A stretch of 64,000 nt of DNA from an uncultured Pseudomonadota bacterium (lineage in GTDB: Bacteria > Pseudomonadota > Alphaproteobacteria > RF32 > CAG-239): contig CACWUA010000001.1 of assembly GCA_902763905.1 (NCBI GenBank), positions 66,291 to 130,290 on the forward strand. Direction: 5' to 3'. Each line of letters starts with the position of its first letter. The first letter of the stretch is position 1. The notes under the pieces are model-generated. The model was not told the DNA's origin. It made no database searches and saw only the letters and a program-made list of their open reading frames with translations. A program made the translations under genes and the position numbers. Below, one piece after another: positions 44,749 to 64,000 of the stretch.

Positions 44749-45093
44749 ATGAAATTCTTGAAAAATAATATTTGCACCATCTTGGCAATGACTTTTATTT
44801 TTTCAGCGGCTATGATAGGTGATGCTTCAGCGGCTTCTTCGGTGTTCGATACCGCTATCAGTAAATTATCTAAGTTGTTTAAGGATACGAAAAGTGTTTT
44901 GTTCGTAATCGGCGGTTTTGGTTTGGTGGCATTGGCCTTCCAAGCTATTTTCGGCAAGCTGAAATGGGCATGGTTTGCCGCTTTGGCTCTGGGTTTGGCA
45001 GTTGTGGCCGCAGCCGGTAAAGTTGTTGACTATGCGGTTTCTTCAAACGACGGTGGCACAGTTACCAGTACTAACTACGACGACTCATTGTAA
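44749..45093 (+). CDS. virB2: VirB2/TrbC-type T4SS pilin, paralog 1
   Basis: AGGAGAAAAAAC RBS. Signal peptide ...MIGDASA-AS. Two hydrophobic helices separated by FGKLKW, roughly 85-aa mature length. First gene of the plus-strand operon. Confidence 0.75.
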   Translation: MKFLKNNICTILAMTFIFSAAMIGDASAASSVFDTAISKLSKLFKDTKSVLFVIGGFGLVALAFQAIFGKLKWAWFAALALGLAVVAAAGKVVDYAVSSNDGGTVTSTNYDDSL

Positions 45094-45173
45094 TATATTG
45101 CTGCCAAAAGTATAATTCAATCGCAAGGGAGAGAGAAATTTCTTTCTCCCTCGGGTTGAAGAAAGGAGGAATT

Positions 45174-45530
45174 ATGTTGTACAGAAAAATAAAGGATTTT
45201 CTTTATAAAAACCGCTATACAATAGCTATGGTGCTTTCTTTATTTTTGTATACAACGGAAACATTTGCCGCTACCGGCGATACCGGCAATTTCAGCGCTT
45301 TGATTATATCCGGTAAAACAATGTTCTCCGGTTTGCGCAAAGTTATTTATCCGGCGGCTACCATCGGTATAGCCAGTGTTTGCATCGGTGGTATGTTTGG
45401 CAGTTTTAACTGGAAGTGGCTGATTGCAATCATGCTCGGAGTTTTTGTTATTGCTTTTGCCGAGCAGGTGGGTGCACTCGCCACCGGTTCTGAAATGGAC
45501 ATGGAAGCCAATATGAATGGTAACGGTTAG
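45174..45530 (+). CDS. virB2: VirB2/TrbC-type T4SS pilin, paralog 2
   Basis: AAAGGAGGA RBS before ATG 45174. Signal ...TTETFA-AT. Two hydrophobic helices separated by FGSFNWKW. Confidence 0.7.
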   Translation: MLYRKIKDFLYKNRYTIAMVLSLFLYTTETFAATGDTGNFSALIISGKTMFSGLRKVIYPAATIGIASVCIGGMFGSFNWKWLIAIMLGVFVIAFAEQVGALATGSEMDMEANMNGNG

Positions 45531-45539
45531 GAGATGAAA

Positions 45540-45914
45540 ATGTTGCAGATGCGTTTTTTTGCTTTACTTTTCTTAGTGGTTTGCGGTGGCGTTTCCGATG
45601 CCTTTGCCGACAGCGATATATTTGTGCAATTGGCCGATAAAGCCACCACTATCGGTTTAGGGCTGCGCAACAGCGGATATATGATTGCCGGAATGGGCTT
45701 GGTTGTATTTTCTGTTATGGCCATTTTTAACAAAATATCGTGGAAAAATCTGGCATATATTATGTTGAGCTGCTTTTTGCTCAGTATTATGTTTGCGGCC
45801 GTTAACTATGTTGCCGAGGGAGGAAAAAACATTCCTGAACTGCAATATGACAGCTCGGGTTCCGAAGCCGGTAGTGTGCCGGGTGATGCCACCAAGGTTC
45901 CGGTAACAAAATAA
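45540..45914 (+). CDS. virB2: VirB2/TrbC-type T4SS pilin, paralog 3
   Basis: Signal ...GGVSDAFA-DS. Two hydrophobic helices separated by FNKISWKN. Same architecture as the two preceding genes. Confidence 0.7.
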   Translation: MLQMRFFALLFLVVCGGVSDAFADSDIFVQLADKATTIGLGLRNSGYMIAGMGLVVFSVMAIFNKISWKNLAYIMLSCFLLSIMFAAVNYVAEGGKNIPELQYDSSGSEAGSVPGDATKVPVTK

Positions 45915-61597: not shown

Positions 61598-61612
61598 AGT
61601 TAGGATAGAGAA

Positions 61613-61900
61613 ATGAGAATGAGCTTTAAAATATTGGTATTGATGATTGGAATGCTGTTTACGCACAATCTTTATGCTGCCGGTTTGGTTACCGATGATA
61701 ACAGCAACAGTAGTTATGATCAATCGGCAGATCAGTCGCAGGGAAACTATCAATCAATGAATCTCGGATATGCCGGTTTCGGTTCTATCGGAATGTTTCA
61801 GGAAGCATGGCAGGATCCGTTACAGAATTTGGGTGAGGGACAAAGTAAGCCGGCTTATTCTAAATATTATTGGACACCTGATCTGGTAGTGAAGGCATGA
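61613..61900 (+). CDS. virB9: VirB9 N-terminal fragment carrying the signal peptide (frameshift-split)
   Basis: Signal peptide MRMSFKILVLMIGMLFTHNLYA. Ends ...YSKYYWTPDLVVKA*, which matches the start of the VirB9 N-domain (Y-x-Y-x-P-x-x-V-x-x-V). Confidence 0.6.
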   Translation: MRMSFKILVLMIGMLFTHNLYAAGLVTDDNSNSSYDQSADQSQGNYQSMNLGYAGFGSIGMFQEAWQDPLQNLGEGQSKPAYSKYYWTPDLVVKA

Positions 61901-63288
61901 TCACAATGATTAATTTTCCGGAATGGGAGTTGGTCGAACATGTGTTTGTCGGTGATACCGGTACTTTTACGGGGCAGATTATGCCGCCTAATACCGTGAT
62001 GTTATATCCGCAACCGGGAGCAACCGTCGGAAATGATACCAATGTCATCGTTCTCGGGCGTTCGGGGAATAAATATGTATTTTACGCCAGAAGTGAAGGT
62101 ATTAACACCGAAAGAATAACAAATTCCATCATAGATATTGATGTTGTCGGTAAAAACGGCGCATCGGGAGGTGGTCCCAGGAGCGGCGGTCAGATAGCCG
62201 GCGGTAGCAGCGGCCATGTAAACGCTGCCGGATTCGGATCGGGAATGGATAAAACGGTTGATGCCACGTTCACCCGTCGTTTCTTAAAAGAAGATTGGTT
62301 AAAGAGTATTCCGATGGATCCGTCAAAGTTTCGTTTTGATATCGAAATTTATGTGCCTAATCCGGATGACGTAATTATTGCACCGGAACGCGTATGGCAT
62401 GATGATATATTTACATATATTGACTTAGGTGAAAAAGCAATCAATATGGTACAGCGTCCGATTGTGACGATGATTATCGAACGCTCGGAAACTCCGGTCG
62501 GATTTAGAACCAAGGGACCAAATAACAGATTGATTATTGTTGAAGGTGTGGGCGATATGGTTATGCGCAGCGGTAAACGTATGGTGTGCTTAAAAATGCG
62601 TCGATCTGATGATGAAGGAACACAATATGTAACCTATGCCGACACCAGCAATGAGTGGGATATTGCTCCGGCAATACCGGGACAAGGTTCGCAAGGCGGC
62701 GGAAGCGGCAGCTCTGCCGGTATGGGAGCTGGAGCGGTCGGCGGTTCATCAAATGCTGCATCCGGTATAAATACGGGAAACAGCGGAGCTGACGGCAGAA
62801 CTGATTTCGGGAACAATTCCGGCGGTGGTGTTTATGTTCCGAACGGTGTTACCAGCGGTTCAAACAGCTCAATGAACGGTTTTATGGGAACAGTTTGTGC
62901 TCCGAATAATGGATGTGCCGGAGATATGGATTACAGCGGTATGTCGCAATTGAAAACCGCAGATGGTGCCGTTATCGGTAAGAATTTTCCGCAATATAAG
63001 TATGGCAGCGGTTTTGAGGGACAAACCTCAGACAGTTTATCGATAGAATTGGGGACTGATTCTAATGTCAATAATTTGGAAGCTTTATGGCAGGATTTAT
63101 CCGGCCGCTATTCCTCATTATTGAGTGGATATGAGCCGTTCTATTCTGTTGACACACCGGCGGATGGGCAAGGAAAAGAGCTGTTCCATCTGCGCGTTGG
63201 GCCTATAAAGAGTTTGGATAGCGGTGATTCCGTCTGCAGCCAGTTGGGACGTAACGGAGTTTTCTGCAGTGTGGTCAGGGTGCAATAA
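61897..63288 (+). CDS. virB9: VirB9/TrbG-family T4SS protein body fused to Gly/Ser linker and C-terminal SPOR domain (lacks its own signal peptide)
   Basis: ITMINFPEWELVEHVFVGDTG...TNVIVLGRSGNKYVFYAR (N-domain). FDIEIYVPNPDDVIIAPERVWHDDIFTYIDLGEK...RPIVTMIIERSETPVGFRTKGPNNRLIIVEGVGDMVMRSGKRMVCLKM (C-domain). C-terminus LSIELGTDSNVNNLEALWQDLSGRY...FHLRVGPIKSLDSGDSVCSQLGRNGVFCSVV is a SPOR-like pattern. Confidence 0.85.
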   Translation: MITMINFPEWELVEHVFVGDTGTFTGQIMPPNTVMLYPQPGATVGNDTNVIVLGRSGNKYVFYARSEGINTERITNSIIDIDVVGKNGASGGGPRSGGQIAGGSSGHVNAAGFGSGMDKTVDATFTRRFLKEDWLKSIPMDPSKFRFDIEIYVPNPDDVIIAPERVWHDDIFTYIDLGEKAINMVQRPIVTMIIERSETPVGFRTKGPNNRLIIVEGVGDMVMRSGKRMVCLKMRRSDDEGTQYVTYADTSNEWDIAPAIPGQGSQGGGSGSSAGMGAGAVGGSSNAASGINTGNSGADGRTDFGNNSGGGVYVPNGVTSGSNSSMNGFMGTVCAPNNGCAGDMDYSGMSQLKTADGAVIGKNFPQYKYGSGFEGQTSDSLSIELGTDSNVNNLEALWQDLSGRYSSLLSGYEPFYSVDTPADGQGKELFHLRVGPIKSLDSGDSVCSQLGRNGVFCSVVRVQ

Positions 63289-64000
63289 ATGAGTAAAGGT
63301 CCGTTAACAAGAGCCGACAGATATGTCAAAAAAACCGATAAGATTATCTTGATTATCGGCATAATAGCACTGTTGACTTTTCTCTTCACTCTTATGCTGG
63401 CAACAGCCGACACGCAAGAGGAAGAAAGAGCAACAATAGTCGAGGATAGCGGCATCGATGCAGAAACGGATATTAACATTAAAAATCAAGAAATTCCGAA
63501 TGAAATTGAGTTCGATAAAGTTGAAGATGATGAGCGTCCCATAACTTTGTCTCCGCTAGAGCTTAATATGGGCCAAATTATATTGGGTAACGAAGCTACA
63601 AATGTATTGACAATAGGCAGCAATGGCAAACGTGAAATACGTATTTTGTCGGTAGAATTGGAGGATGCTCCGTTTGATGGATTTTCTTATGATTCCAGCA
63701 ATTGTCAAAATAAGGAGTTGCGAGGCAATTTAACTTGTATGGTTACTACCAAATGGATTCCCAGTGTTGCCGGAAATGTACAAAGCAATTTTAAGATTGT
63801 ATGGCATGAAACAAATATATCCGCACAAAATGCCAAGCACGACGAAATAACCGTACGCGGCAGTGCGGTTACAAAAGAAAATTGTAATTTTTGCGAAACA
63901 GATATGGTTGCGGCCGTTCCGAGCAGCGGTGTTGCCATTGGCGGGTATCGTTATGCTATCGGTCCGGATGGAAAAGTTATAGGTGCCATTGATGAAAACG
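63289..64000 (+). CDS. Probable VirB10-position protein, 3'-truncated by window edge
   Basis: My own translation from ATG 63289, one nt after the virB9 stop, is open to nt 64000: MSKGPLTRADRYVKKTDKIILIIGIIALLTFLFTLMLA (short cytoplasmic tail plus TM, as in VirB10), an acidic linker, then a beta-rich segment. Identity rests on position and topology only. Confidence 0.5.
   Translation, partial: MSKGPLTRADRYVKKTDKIILIIGIIALLTFLFTLMLATADTQEEERATIVEDSGIDAETDINIKNQEIPNEIEFDKVEDDERPITLSPLELNMGQIILGNEATNVLTIGSNGKREIRILSVELEDAPFDGFSYDSSNCQNKELRGNLTCMVTTKWIPSVAGNVQSNFKIVWHETNISAQNAKHDEITVRGSAVTKENCNFCETDMVAAVPSSGVAIGGYRYAIGPDGKVIGAIDEN

Follow-up and report, generated by a model that had tools for sequence, protein, structure and literature searches.

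The window (the whole 64-kb stretch of DNA that was analysed) carries three virB2 genes, a gene for a small secreted protein, a virB3-like gene, virB4, a block of genes for secreted proteins, virB8, a virB7-like gene, a second virB8, virB9 and the beginning of a further gene, here termed G1, in the following order:

44749..45093, + strand: virB2 paralog a, a pilin with a signal peptide and two TM segments (three hydrophobic segments; Pfam TrbC 34.0 bits, E=3.4e-8)
45174..45530, + strand: virB2 paralog b (Pfam TrbC 32.6 bits)
45534..45914, + strand: virB2 paralog c, divergent (Pfam TrbC 18.5 bits, under the cut-off of 27.9 bits; a paralog of a and b by BLAST)
45934..46377, + strand: 147-aa Sec-exported helical protein with a signal peptide, conserved in the clade
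46374..46664, + strand: virB3-like, 96 aa, two TM segments (weak Pfam VirB3 match, E=0.053; 4-nt overlap with virB4)
46661..49019, + strand: virB4 ATPase, broken (two ORFs, 46661-47587 and 47574-49019)
49101..49808, + strand: P1, 235 aa, Sec-exported, highly charged (one N-terminal hydrophobic segment; no family match)
49829..50617, + strand: P2, 262 aa, Sec-exported (hydrophobicity scan; no family match)
50646..52202, + strand: P3, 518 aa, Sec-exported, acidic, eight cysteines (hydrophobicity scan; no family match)
52233..53378, + strand: P4, about 381 aa, Sec-exported, ORF open from 52206 (hydrophobicity scan; no family match)
53356..54648, + strand: P5, 430 aa, Sec-exported, all-helical (alignment of relatives; AF2 model)
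54662..59718, + strand: P6/7, a single giant secreted-protein gene, split here (one gene in relatives)
59742..60494, + strand: virB8 paralog a, bitopic (Pfam VirB8 44.8 bits, cut-off 23.2 bits; profile matches VirB8 structures in the PDB)
60641..60829, + strand: virB7-like 62-aa lipoprotein with lipobox LSAC and motif ELKLSPCAC (position between the two virB8 genes)
60845..61597, + strand: virB8 paralog b (Pfam VirB8 78.6 bits; profile matches Bartonella VirB8, E=3e-9)
61613..63288, + strand: virB9, with a CagX domain, a Gly/Ser-rich linker and a C-terminal SPOR domain, split (VirB9/CagX profile)
63289..64000, + strand: 5' end of G1 (short cytoplasmic tail, one TM segment, then beta-flower/DxxG hairpin repeats)

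The VirB/Trb-type type IV secretion system (T4SS) operon described in an earlier note on this DNA is real, with VirB2 (three copies), VirB4, VirB8 (two copies) and VirB9 matched by family profiles, and its genes are as tightly coupled as had been claimed, all junctions falling between -23 and +146 nt. Searches with a full-length VirB4 homologue (P0005) matched TIGR00929 at E=7e-113 and, in the PDB, TrwK at 4e-35; the virB3-like ORF shares 30% identity with the protein annotated as VirB3 on the Microvirga plasmid pMVF16-3, and an intact virB9 copy from a close relative (L001) reaches 44.1 bits against VirB9/CagX. The virB7-like lipoprotein shares 43% identity with a 58-aa lipoprotein encoded at the same position on pMVF16-3, and its motif recurs in locus L056. 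The 147-aa Sec-exported protein has orthologs in L051 and L068 (34-56% identity), and family searches with it returned no match. The virB8-virB7-virB8-virB9 arrangement is likewise genuine, and the majority of the ~50 loci from related species keep it.

The last gene had been assigned to the virB10 position, but a TrbI domain is absent from it; the true VirB10 and VirB11 are encoded past the end of the window. G1 is followed in relatives by a giant VirB10 (1385-1800 aa, with a signal peptide) and then VirB11. G1, which measures 1100-2734 aa at full length in relatives, is a giant beta-flower-repeat protein anchored in the inner membrane; beta-hairpin repeats are common to G1, with its TM anchor, and VirB10, with its signal peptide. 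ComB10 is the best-scoring match of the VirB10 domain.

Three of the genes are interrupted in this copy. Near 47574, 71 nt are missing from virB4 in comparison with its homologues, as a consequence of which it reads as two ORFs; a 67-nt deletion at 56789 splits P6/7 into P6 and P7; and a 16-nt deletion at 61889 divides virB9 into ORFs of 95 and 463 aa. Each pair of fragments is one gene in relatives (virB4, 809-810 aa; the P6/7 counterpart, 1300-1800 aa in 40 relatives; virB9, 524-587 aa), and because P6 and P7 are one gene, the block comprises six rather than seven unknown genes. Unless they are assembly errors, the three frame-breaking deletions would inactivate the machine in this genome. 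A decaying relic, that is, a pseudogenised and functionless T4SS in this genome, is possible, although we lean against it. The breaks of 71, 67 and 16 nt affect genes that are all intact in relatives, and a look over the long ORFs in the remaining 44 kb, short of a systematic comparison with relatives, showed no comparable breaks. However, outside the deletions the genes are open, free of stop codons and 87-96% identical to those of L001, deletions of tens of bases may be assembly artefacts, and the relic reading concerns one strain only and leaves the system itself unexplained.

The virB9 locus was found in at least 50 species, and most of the loci long enough to show it have the full gene order. 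Of the possibility raised earlier that this order is a well-populated, already described T4SS subtype, the first half holds for genomes (50 species loci), but no published description of this operon was found in the literature. The chromosomal setting is constant across species; the window encodes UvrA, MsbA, MurJ and TyrRS, and in L059 yidC, rnpA and rpmH lie 3' of the operon. Neither the 64 kb nor the relatives' flanks contain a tRNA, relaxase, VirD4 or integrase; profile searches of the 64-kb window agree in this respect with the absence of a relaxase, coupling protein and integrase reported before. Next to the operon lies a gene cluster for a type IVb pilus, which includes an ATPase of the PilT family.

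The window probably (at a probability of about 0.6) contains the greater part of the main operon of an expanded VirB/Trb-type T4SS that is chromosomally fixed and vertically inherited in a clade of uncultured rumen/gut Alphaproteobacteria. Weighing against this reading are the frame shifts in three essential-looking genes of this copy, and the restriction of the evidence on VirB6, VirD4, VirB5 and VirB1 in the organism's own genome to the window. The conjugative nature of the closest annotated relatives (MobA and VirD4 on pMVF16-3; MobA in L056), the top score of ComB10 for the VirB10 domain and the adjoining pilus cluster would suit an integrative conjugative element or DNA uptake of the ComB type. 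Such a reading is nevertheless very unlikely, given that relaxase, VirD4, integrase and tRNA are missing from the 64 kb and the relatives' flanks, that the same chromosomal context is kept across species, and that VirB11 is present here (in relatives), unlike in ComB systems, which are not known to have it.

Within the secreted block, P1 to P6 each have one N-terminal hydrophobic segment and P7 has none (Kyte-Doolittle), in accordance with the earlier limit of one per protein. The block proteins have no match in Pfam or NCBIfam, profile searches of the PDB with P5 and P6/7 revealed no similarity to any solved structure, and Pfam, NCBIfam, PDB profiles, AF2 and Foldseek gave nothing on the roles of the block and G1. 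The AF2 model of P5 is all-helical (pLDDT 57), and its alignment shows a conserved C-terminal motif, W..KY.L.DY..D..FNLDDY, and two invariant cysteines. Nor do these genes form the run of large paralogs previously proposed, since profile-profile similarity among P3, P4, P5 and P6/7 is limited to the signal peptides. The divergence of the block is about twice that of the core, with identities of 49-54% for P4-P6 versus 78-90% for B8/B9/B11 between L002 and the window, 29-33% versus 64-95% in L009, and 25-40% for block proteins versus 93% for the VirB4 C-terminal half in L051.

Proteins of this kind could also be cargo: in a two-step secretion resembling that of pertussis toxin, toxin or adhesin subunits would be assembled in the periplasm and expelled by a VirD4-less T4SS. 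Every block protein has a Sec-type signal peptide and is encoded inside the operon, no VirD4 or Walker-A protein occurs in the regions searched (near the operon and in the VirB6 cluster described below), and the block evolves fast, with 5-6 genes of differing sizes among close relatives. However, almost every one of the ~50 species loci retains P5 and P6/7, whose motifs and cysteines are conserved in the manner of structural parts, and profile searches detected no toxin or enzyme domain in the block, which makes the cargo reading improbable. The Bordetella pertussis Ptl system is similarly VirB-type, with Sec-exported proteins in the same operon and apparently no VirD4. It differs in that the pertussis toxin genes, of known folds, precede the ptl genes, whereas the secreted proteins here are encoded between virB4 and virB8 and are far larger, more variable and devoid of toxin domains. 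Ptl has no VirB5 (PMC2653234), and none is recognisable here. For the present system, we infer that the six Sec-exported proteins are accessory components, particular to this lineage, in the periplasm or at the cell surface.

As claimed earlier, VirB6, VirB5 and VirB1 are unrecognisable within the window (Pfam, NCBIfam, hydrophobicity scans), no protein of the operon is polytopic, and across the 50 related loci this operon never includes an ORF with at least four TM segments. The conclusion then drawn, that soluble secreted proteins have replaced VirB6, finds no support in view of a human-gut relative (L057/L060) with the virB8b-virB9-G1-virB10-virB11 order of the window's relatives. In this relative a convergent operon, whose end lies ~100 nt past virB11, encodes four tandem polytopic paralogs (6-7 TM segments), three of which match Pfam TrbL/VirB6, while the fourth contains an M23 peptidase whose catalytic motifs are intact; no polytopic VirB6/TrbL domain was found in P1 to P7. 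Because L031 and L048 contain the block plus the first gene of the convergent VirB6 cluster, the block is most likely an addition rather than a VirB6 replacement; these two loci point to coexistence with the VirB6 array, no single sequence showing both. A T4SS genuinely without VirB6 would accord with the lack of a polytopic protein between virB4 and virB8 in all 50 loci and in the distant cousin L056, and with the window's nearest relatives (L001, L059), where an autotransporter and housekeeping genes, and no VirB6, follow virB11. Against the four VirB6-like proteins beside virB11 in a member of the clade, and the tie between the VirB6 cluster and the block-containing operon in L031 and L048, it is highly improbable.

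The gene order had also been said to mirror that of the Rickettsiales vir homolog (rvh) system; the resemblance in layout stands, but comparisons of VirB8 and VirB4 gave no sign of a specific kinship. Both are chromosomal P-type T4SSs in which a duplicated VirB8 flanks VirB7, followed by VirB9, VirB10 and VirB11, and in both the components are spread over more than one locus. VirB8 duplication around VirB7, multicopy large VirB6 (here several tandem paralogs, in a relative) and the lack of a recognisable VirB5, which are hallmarks of rvh (PMC11077975), are common to the two. In contrast to rvh, in which VirB6 follows, virB4 is followed here by six unrelated Sec-exported proteins, and three VirB2 copies head the operon. 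VirB4 and VirB9 were each seen only once, G1 precedes a giant VirB10 that bears a signal peptide, and VirB11 is not followed by VirD4. The labels of related contigs point to MAGs like Rhodospirillaceae, Azospirillaceae or Azospirillum rather than to Rickettsiales. Related VirB4 genes also lie in small chromosomal islets of other uncultured Alphaproteobacteria (L054, L055).

That the system is a true member of the rvh family, as a sister or donor lineage, is unlikely. The shared hallmarks, the separation of VirB6 from the main operon and the VirB4 islets would be in keeping with it, as would the ComB10 match of VirB10 beside the ComB-like features of rickettsial VirB7 and VirB9 (PMC2653234) and the inferred acquisition of rvh by horizontal transfer from a proteobacterial donor (PMC9352585). 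However, VirB4 and VirB9 are not seen duplicated, secreted proteins instead of VirB6 follow virB4, and none of 30 sampled VirB4 neighbours bears a Rickettsiales name (named ones being a minority). The VirB8 profiles match Bartonella, Brucella and Agrobacterium VirB8 structures and not the R. typhi RvhB8-II entry, which is presumably present in the PDB.

The nearest annotated relative is instead the conjugative MobA/VirD4 T4SS of Microvirga sp. VF16 plasmid pMVF16-3 (order MobA, B2, B3, B4, X1-3, B7 with an SPCAC motif, B8, B9, B10, B11, VirD4), to which the systems of L056 and of Erythrobacter and Sphingosinicella plasmids are similar. The backbone of B2, B3, B4, slot proteins, B7 lipoprotein, B8, large B9, B10 and B11 is shared (BLAST identities of 44% for the VirB4 C-terminal half, 43% for B7, 39% for B11, 32% for B8 and 31% for B9). 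The Microvirga system differs in residing on a plasmid together with genes for a MobA/MobL relaxase and VirD4, in its single B2 and B8 and in a normal 590-aa TM-anchored VirB10; its three slot proteins (one weakly VirB5-like, one small with 3-4 TM segments, one secreted) have no detectable homology to the block in the window. The Helicobacter pylori Cag T4SS is likewise a VirB-like machine that has been expanded: its VirB10 (CagY) is very large and bears repeats, its VirB9 (CagX) is enlarged, and it has several Sec-exported accessory proteins of its own, but its gene order is different, VirB10 here appears divided over two genes, and P5 and P6/7 resemble no solved structure.

As had been stated, function is not decidable from the window by itself, and no substrate or effector was identified. 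In an expanded, chromosomally fixed T4SS of this kind, VirB4 and VirB3, with VirB6 encoded elsewhere, would drive the extraction of the three pilins and power assembly, and VirB7, VirB9 and the C-terminal barrel of VirB10 would form an outer-membrane core tethered to peptidoglycan by the SPOR domain of VirB9. The usual envelope-spanning role of VirB10 would be split, G1 keeping the cytoplasmic tail and TM anchor and VirB10 carrying a cleavable signal peptide, and the beta-hairpin repeats of both may span the periplasm. The M23-bearing VirB6 paralog might stand in for the VirB1 transglycosylase, and the block proteins could be, for example, pilus-tip, adhesin or core-decoration parts under diversifying pressure. 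The operon belongs to a large, expanded VirB-type machine, apparently undescribed so far and conserved across uncultured rumen/gut Alphaproteobacteria, which most likely serves interactions with other cells that depend on contact, and not conjugation.

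From position 44749 to the end of the window, every substantial open reading frame lies on the + strand, with gaps or overlaps of -23 to +146 nt between genes, and the reading frames include most core parts of a type IV secretion system (T4SS). There are three TrbC/VirB2 pilins, two above the Pfam gathering score and a third that is weak, followed by a virB3-like 96-aa ORF that overlaps virB4, has two TM segments and is 30% identical to an annotated VirB3 (weak Pfam match, E=0.053). The Pfam signatures of virB4 are spread over two consecutive ORFs, the window copy being frame-shifted, and a full-length homologue matches TIGR00929 (E=7e-113) and TrwK in the PDB (E=4e-35). 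Two VirB8 genes (Pfam scores of 44.8 and 78.6 bits), which are 31% identical to each other and are kept as a pair in most of some 50 related loci, flank a 62-aa virB7-like ORF with the lipobox LSAC; single VirB8 sequences found nothing in the PDB by phmmer, matches being obtained with profiles. The virB9 product combines a CagX/VirB9 domain with a C-terminal SPOR domain (Pfam), and its C-terminal part (window 62700-63288; 9701-11389 in L001, the locus of the closest relative) comprises a long Gly/Ser/Asn-rich linker and this peptidoglycan-binding domain, a combination that is probably unusual for VirB9. Just past the position of the window end, L001 encodes the TrbI domain of VirB10 (E=5.5e-32) and then T2SSE/VirB11.

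No window ORF matches VirB5 (PF07996) or VirB1 (SLT) in Pfam or NCBIfam, and exact-sequence look-ups of the window VirB9 and VirB8b returned no match on record. The earlier note's statement that the window holds no relaxase, coupling protein or integrase is borne out by a search of the window, and none is found in the flanks of the relatives either, where the chromosomal neighbours are conserved. The other genes of the 64 kb belong to an ordinary chromosome (AddA/UvrD-like helicase, MurJ, TyrRS, UvrA, MsbA and a GldF/G-like ABC transporter), and tRNA and Rfam scans of the window gave no match.

Nucleotide alignment of the window with its relatives reveals three deletions, all of which shift the frame and all of which lie inside T4SS genes: 71 nt are absent from virB4 near 47574, 67 nt at 56789 inside P6/7 and 16 nt at 61889 inside virB9. 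In the relatives VirB4 is a single protein of 809-810 aa, and P6/7 and VirB9 are each encoded by a single gene. A comparison of 51962-64000 with L001 shows no further frame-breaking difference besides those at 56789 and 61889. The deletions represent either a strain-specific inactivation of the T4SS or faulty assembly at three places. Because P6 and P7 form one gene in the relatives, the Sec-exported proteins encoded between virB4 and the first virB8 gene (virB8a), which had been counted as seven unknown genes, number six.

The system is widespread among related bacteria. Homologues of VirB4 at 83-97% identity all derive from metagenome-assembled genomes (MAGs) labelled Alphaproteobacteria, and when a single genome of every GTDB species was scanned with VirB9, 50 loci were obtained, nearly all of them in MAGs of rumen, horse, deer, yak or human gut origin. 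Their labels read Alphaproteobacteria, Rhodospirillaceae or Azospirillaceae, and in a few cases the bin label is evidently wrong. Four loci (L024, L025, L033 and L050) carry titles such as Bacteroidaceae bacterium, [Ruminococcus] gnavus and Eubacteriales, and probably come from mislabelled or contaminated bins. The closest locus, L001, is from a goat rumen MAG (isolate RGIG3536) and its VirB9 is 96% identical to that of the window. As judged by BLAST across all loci, the conserved order is P3, P4, P5, P6/7, virB8a, virB7, virB8b, virB9, a giant gene named G1, a giant virB10 and virB11, with P6/7 as a single gene for 1300-1800 aa and a VirB9 of 524-587 aa. A few loci depart from this order, among them L005, which has neither the block of secreted proteins nor virB8a. 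In this roe-deer MAG (L005 1-10000) virB7 is instead immediately preceded by an MsbA-like ORF and a PilT-like ATPase, an arrangement that suggests a large deletion or rearrangement.

The secreted-protein block is the most variable part of the locus. It evolves at about twice the rate of the core, and the number and sizes of its genes differ between close relatives: L051, in which the C-terminal half of VirB4 is 93% identical, encodes five block proteins of 382, 476, 546, 421 and 1549+ aa at 25-40% identity, and the block of L068 begins with proteins of 233, 217, 217, 388 and 350 aa. Its most persistent members, P5 and P6/7, contain invariant cysteines and aromatic motifs. Proteins P1 to P6/7 have no match in Pfam, NCBIfam (chance-level hits only) or the sequences of the PDB. 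An AF2 model of P5 from a 16-sequence alignment is all-helical with a pLDDT of 57, and Foldseek found nothing below E=0.27 for it in the PDB, only coiled coils and designed bundles; the P5 profile has no PDB match, that of P6/7 gives coiled-coil noise only, and a single-sequence model of P7 (pLDDT 38.6) is unusable. By hhalign, P3, P4, P5 and P6/7 are related neither to each other nor to the proteins in the corresponding slot of more distant systems (Microvirga and locus L056). The block had been likened to the run of large paralogous genes in the Rickettsiales vir homolog (rvh) T4SS, but its proteins are not paralogs by BLAST or hhalign, so that in this respect too the comparison with the rvhB6 genes breaks down.

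The gene cut by the window end had been described as a virB10-position gene, but it is not VirB10: its full-length ortholog, G1, contains no TrbI domain. In L001 G1 is 1413 aa long and has a short tail in the cytoplasm and a single TM helix. Beta-flower, DUF3659 and RHS-like hairpin repeats make up the remainder, and between species its length ranges from about 1100 to 2734 aa (L015, L038). The true VirB10 (1385 aa in L001) is encoded directly after G1 and before VirB11; it has a C-terminal TrbI barrel, for which the best NCBIfam score is ComB10, and has beta-flower/DxxG hairpin repeats in common with G1 over hundreds of residues (the two genes: L001 11390-19791; window 63289-64000). In all species examined its N-terminus is a cleavable-looking signal peptide, in place of the usual membrane anchor, followed by a conserved EITAIDF motif. 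The G1/VirB10 pair offers a natural example of two genes that seem to share between them the task of VirB10 in spanning the envelope.

None of the block proteins is polytopic, as the earlier note had observed: a single hydrophobic segment, at the N-terminus, occurs in each of P1-P6 and none in P7, and across the 50 loci this operon contains no ORF with at least four TM segments. The further claim that VirB6 is missing and has been replaced is not supported, given what is seen in a very common human-gut relative, whose VirB11 is 78% identical and which has the virB8b-B9-G1-B10-B11 order of the window clade. When contigs bearing VirB11 homologues were inspected, a convergent cluster was found to end ca. 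100 nt past virB11 in this relative (L057), and on the strand of the cluster itself (locus L060) it includes the following feature adjoining virB11:

L060 1887-11487: four VirB6-like polytopic proteins encoded in tandem (826, 438, 1069 and 853 aa), each with 6-7 TM segments

The four proteins are mutual BLAST paralogs, and three of them match Pfam TrbL/VirB6 (E=5e-5, 1e-4 and 6e-8), one at 33.1 bits, above the 25.9-bit cut-off, and two just below it (23.6 and 22.7 bits). In the 1069-aa paralog an M23 metallopeptidase domain is inserted between TM segments with both catalytic motifs intact, HMGLD (HxxxD) and HLH (HxH), and it is a possible substitute for VirB1. Such a VirB6-peptidase fusion could account for the passage of the machine through peptidoglycan in systems that lack VirB1. 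Behind the array lie an XRE-type regulator and four genes of no known family; as the L060 cluster encodes no protein with a Walker A motif, it has no VirD4, and VirD4 is likewise absent from the window and from the 10 kb past virB11 (L057, L059). Independent assemblies (L060, L063, L065-L067) break off at almost identical positions, some hundreds of bases before the VirB6 cluster, which hints at a repeat there, such as an IS or an rRNA operon.

A tblastn search of the window and all loci with the proteins of the L057 VirB6 cluster matched a 284-aa gene only, in L031 and L048. These two loci have the secreted-protein block and, right after virB11, the last gene of the VirB6 cluster, so that block and array most likely coexist, although they have never been seen on one sequence together. 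In the loci closest to the window, the gene after virB11 encodes an autotransporter of 1387 aa (L059 11023-15186; L001 20896-21386), with yidC, rnpA and rpmH beyond it, and the array must accordingly lie elsewhere or be absent in them. Most likely VirB6 only seems to be lost because of where the window ends.

An exhaustive VirB4 search (504 representative clusters at E<1e-30) places the nearest relatives outside the clade in other uncultured Alphaproteobacteria, at 35-47% identity. Two of these loci are small chromosomal islets, one with virB3, virB4, a 60-aa gene (possibly virB7), virB8 and virB9 amid housekeeping genes (L054 9619-14963) and one with virB3 and virB4 only, near an ankyrin-repeat gene (L055 9708-12472), an archipelago-like organisation that recalls the Rickettsiales. 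A third, L056, encodes MobA, a long TrbC, VirB3, VirB4, four secreted non-polytopic proteins, a lipoprotein, VirB8, VirB9 and VirB10, and its lipoprotein has the motif LK.SPCAC found in the window virB7-like lipoprotein. The best plasmid match, pMVF16-3 of Microvirga sp. VF16, has the order MobA/MobL, DnaB-like, VirB2, VirB3, VirB4, three hypotheticals, a 58-aa lipoprotein (DLKKSPCAC), VirB8, VirB9 (550 aa), a TM-anchored VirB10 of 590 aa, VirB11 and VirD4, and its core proteins are similar to those of the window by BLAST. A weak likeness to VirB5 is seen in the first slot protein of Microvirga and L056 (PF07996, E=0.0025 and 0.17), and 3-4 TM segments are present in one of the slot proteins of Microvirga. 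In the light of these cousins, the gut system looks as if it derived from a conjugative T4SS subtype of Alphaproteobacteria by domestication in the chromosome and heavy expansion.

The rvh system, called a rickettsial signature in the literature, is marked by the duplication of RvhB4, RvhB8 and RvhB9, by several copies of RvhB6 and by the lack of VirB5 (PMC11077975), has its genes in virB3-virB4-virB6 and virB8-virB9-virB10-virB11-virD4 clusters (PMC2653234), and is inferred to have been acquired by horizontal transfer from some proteobacterial donor (PMC9352585). The window system shares with it the VirB8 duplication and, as negative evidence only, the lack of a VirB5-family match; multicopy VirB6 is seen in the relative L060 only, and within the locus there is one VirB4 and one VirB9. 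VirB8 profiles match Bartonella, Brucella, Agrobacterium and TrwG structures in the PDB and do not match the R. typhi RvhB8-II entry, and among 30 sampled from the 150 best VirB4 representatives, the most AT-biased included, none bears a Rickettsiales name, all being MAGs, other Alphaproteobacteria or Aliarcobacter. The likeness to rvh is therefore treated as architectural; it may be convergent or a sign of kinship.

A more far-reaching joint reading, to which we give a probability of roughly one in five, is that of an order-wide chromosomal T4SS family with rvh hallmarks outside the Rickettsiales (VirB8 duplicated around VirB7, a tandem giant VirB6 array and no VirB5), combined with three new architectures. 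These would be a VirB10 split into an inner-membrane G1 half and a signal-peptide outer-membrane half joined by beta-flower repeats, a VirB6 paralog whose embedded M23 peptidase, predicted to be active, would take the place of VirB1, and five or six secreted proteins in a hypervariable block, none of these architectures being described for any T4SS. Were this joint reading correct, rvh may have its sister or its donor in the gut and rumen alphaproteobacterial family. The occurrence of duplications like those of rvh outside the Rickettsiales could make the origin of rvh testable by phylogenies.

Directly upstream of the T4SS operon, and divergent from it, lies a type IVb-pilus cluster (32748-44315, mostly on the - strand):

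32748-33776, + strand: PilT-family ATPase
33811-34458: PilS-like pilin
34364-35488: PilR/GspF platform protein
35502-37256: GspE/PilQ-like ATPase, followed by a 573-aa protein of no assigned family
39001-40266: PilO-like protein
40286-41923: PilN-type secretin
41889-42617: TcpQ, accompanied by a 552-aa protein of no assigned family

The cluster adjoins virB2 also in L051-L053 and L068, and this kept adjacency suggests functional coupling. Since the T4SS locus is chromosomal, is syntenic across species and has no relaxase, integrase or VirD4 nearby, conjugation is an unlikely function. We favour a contact-dependent surface or translocation machine, the exposed pilins and block proteins of which diversify fast. 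The Sec-exported block proteins could also be read as cargo, in the manner of the Bordetella pertussis Ptl system, and this is a serious rival; DNA uptake of the ComB type, the system of the best-scoring model for the VirB10 barrel, is a weaker one. A full-text literature search (RF32/CAG-239 and T4SS) found no description of the system.

A single VirB11 variant is indexed in 4062 blocks of a public assembly collection, indicating that bacteria of this clade are common. They are common yet uncultured, and the locus informs both their interactions and T4SS biology: a conserved, elaborate and fast-evolving contact machine is the best clue to their partners, be these other bacteria, protists or the host.
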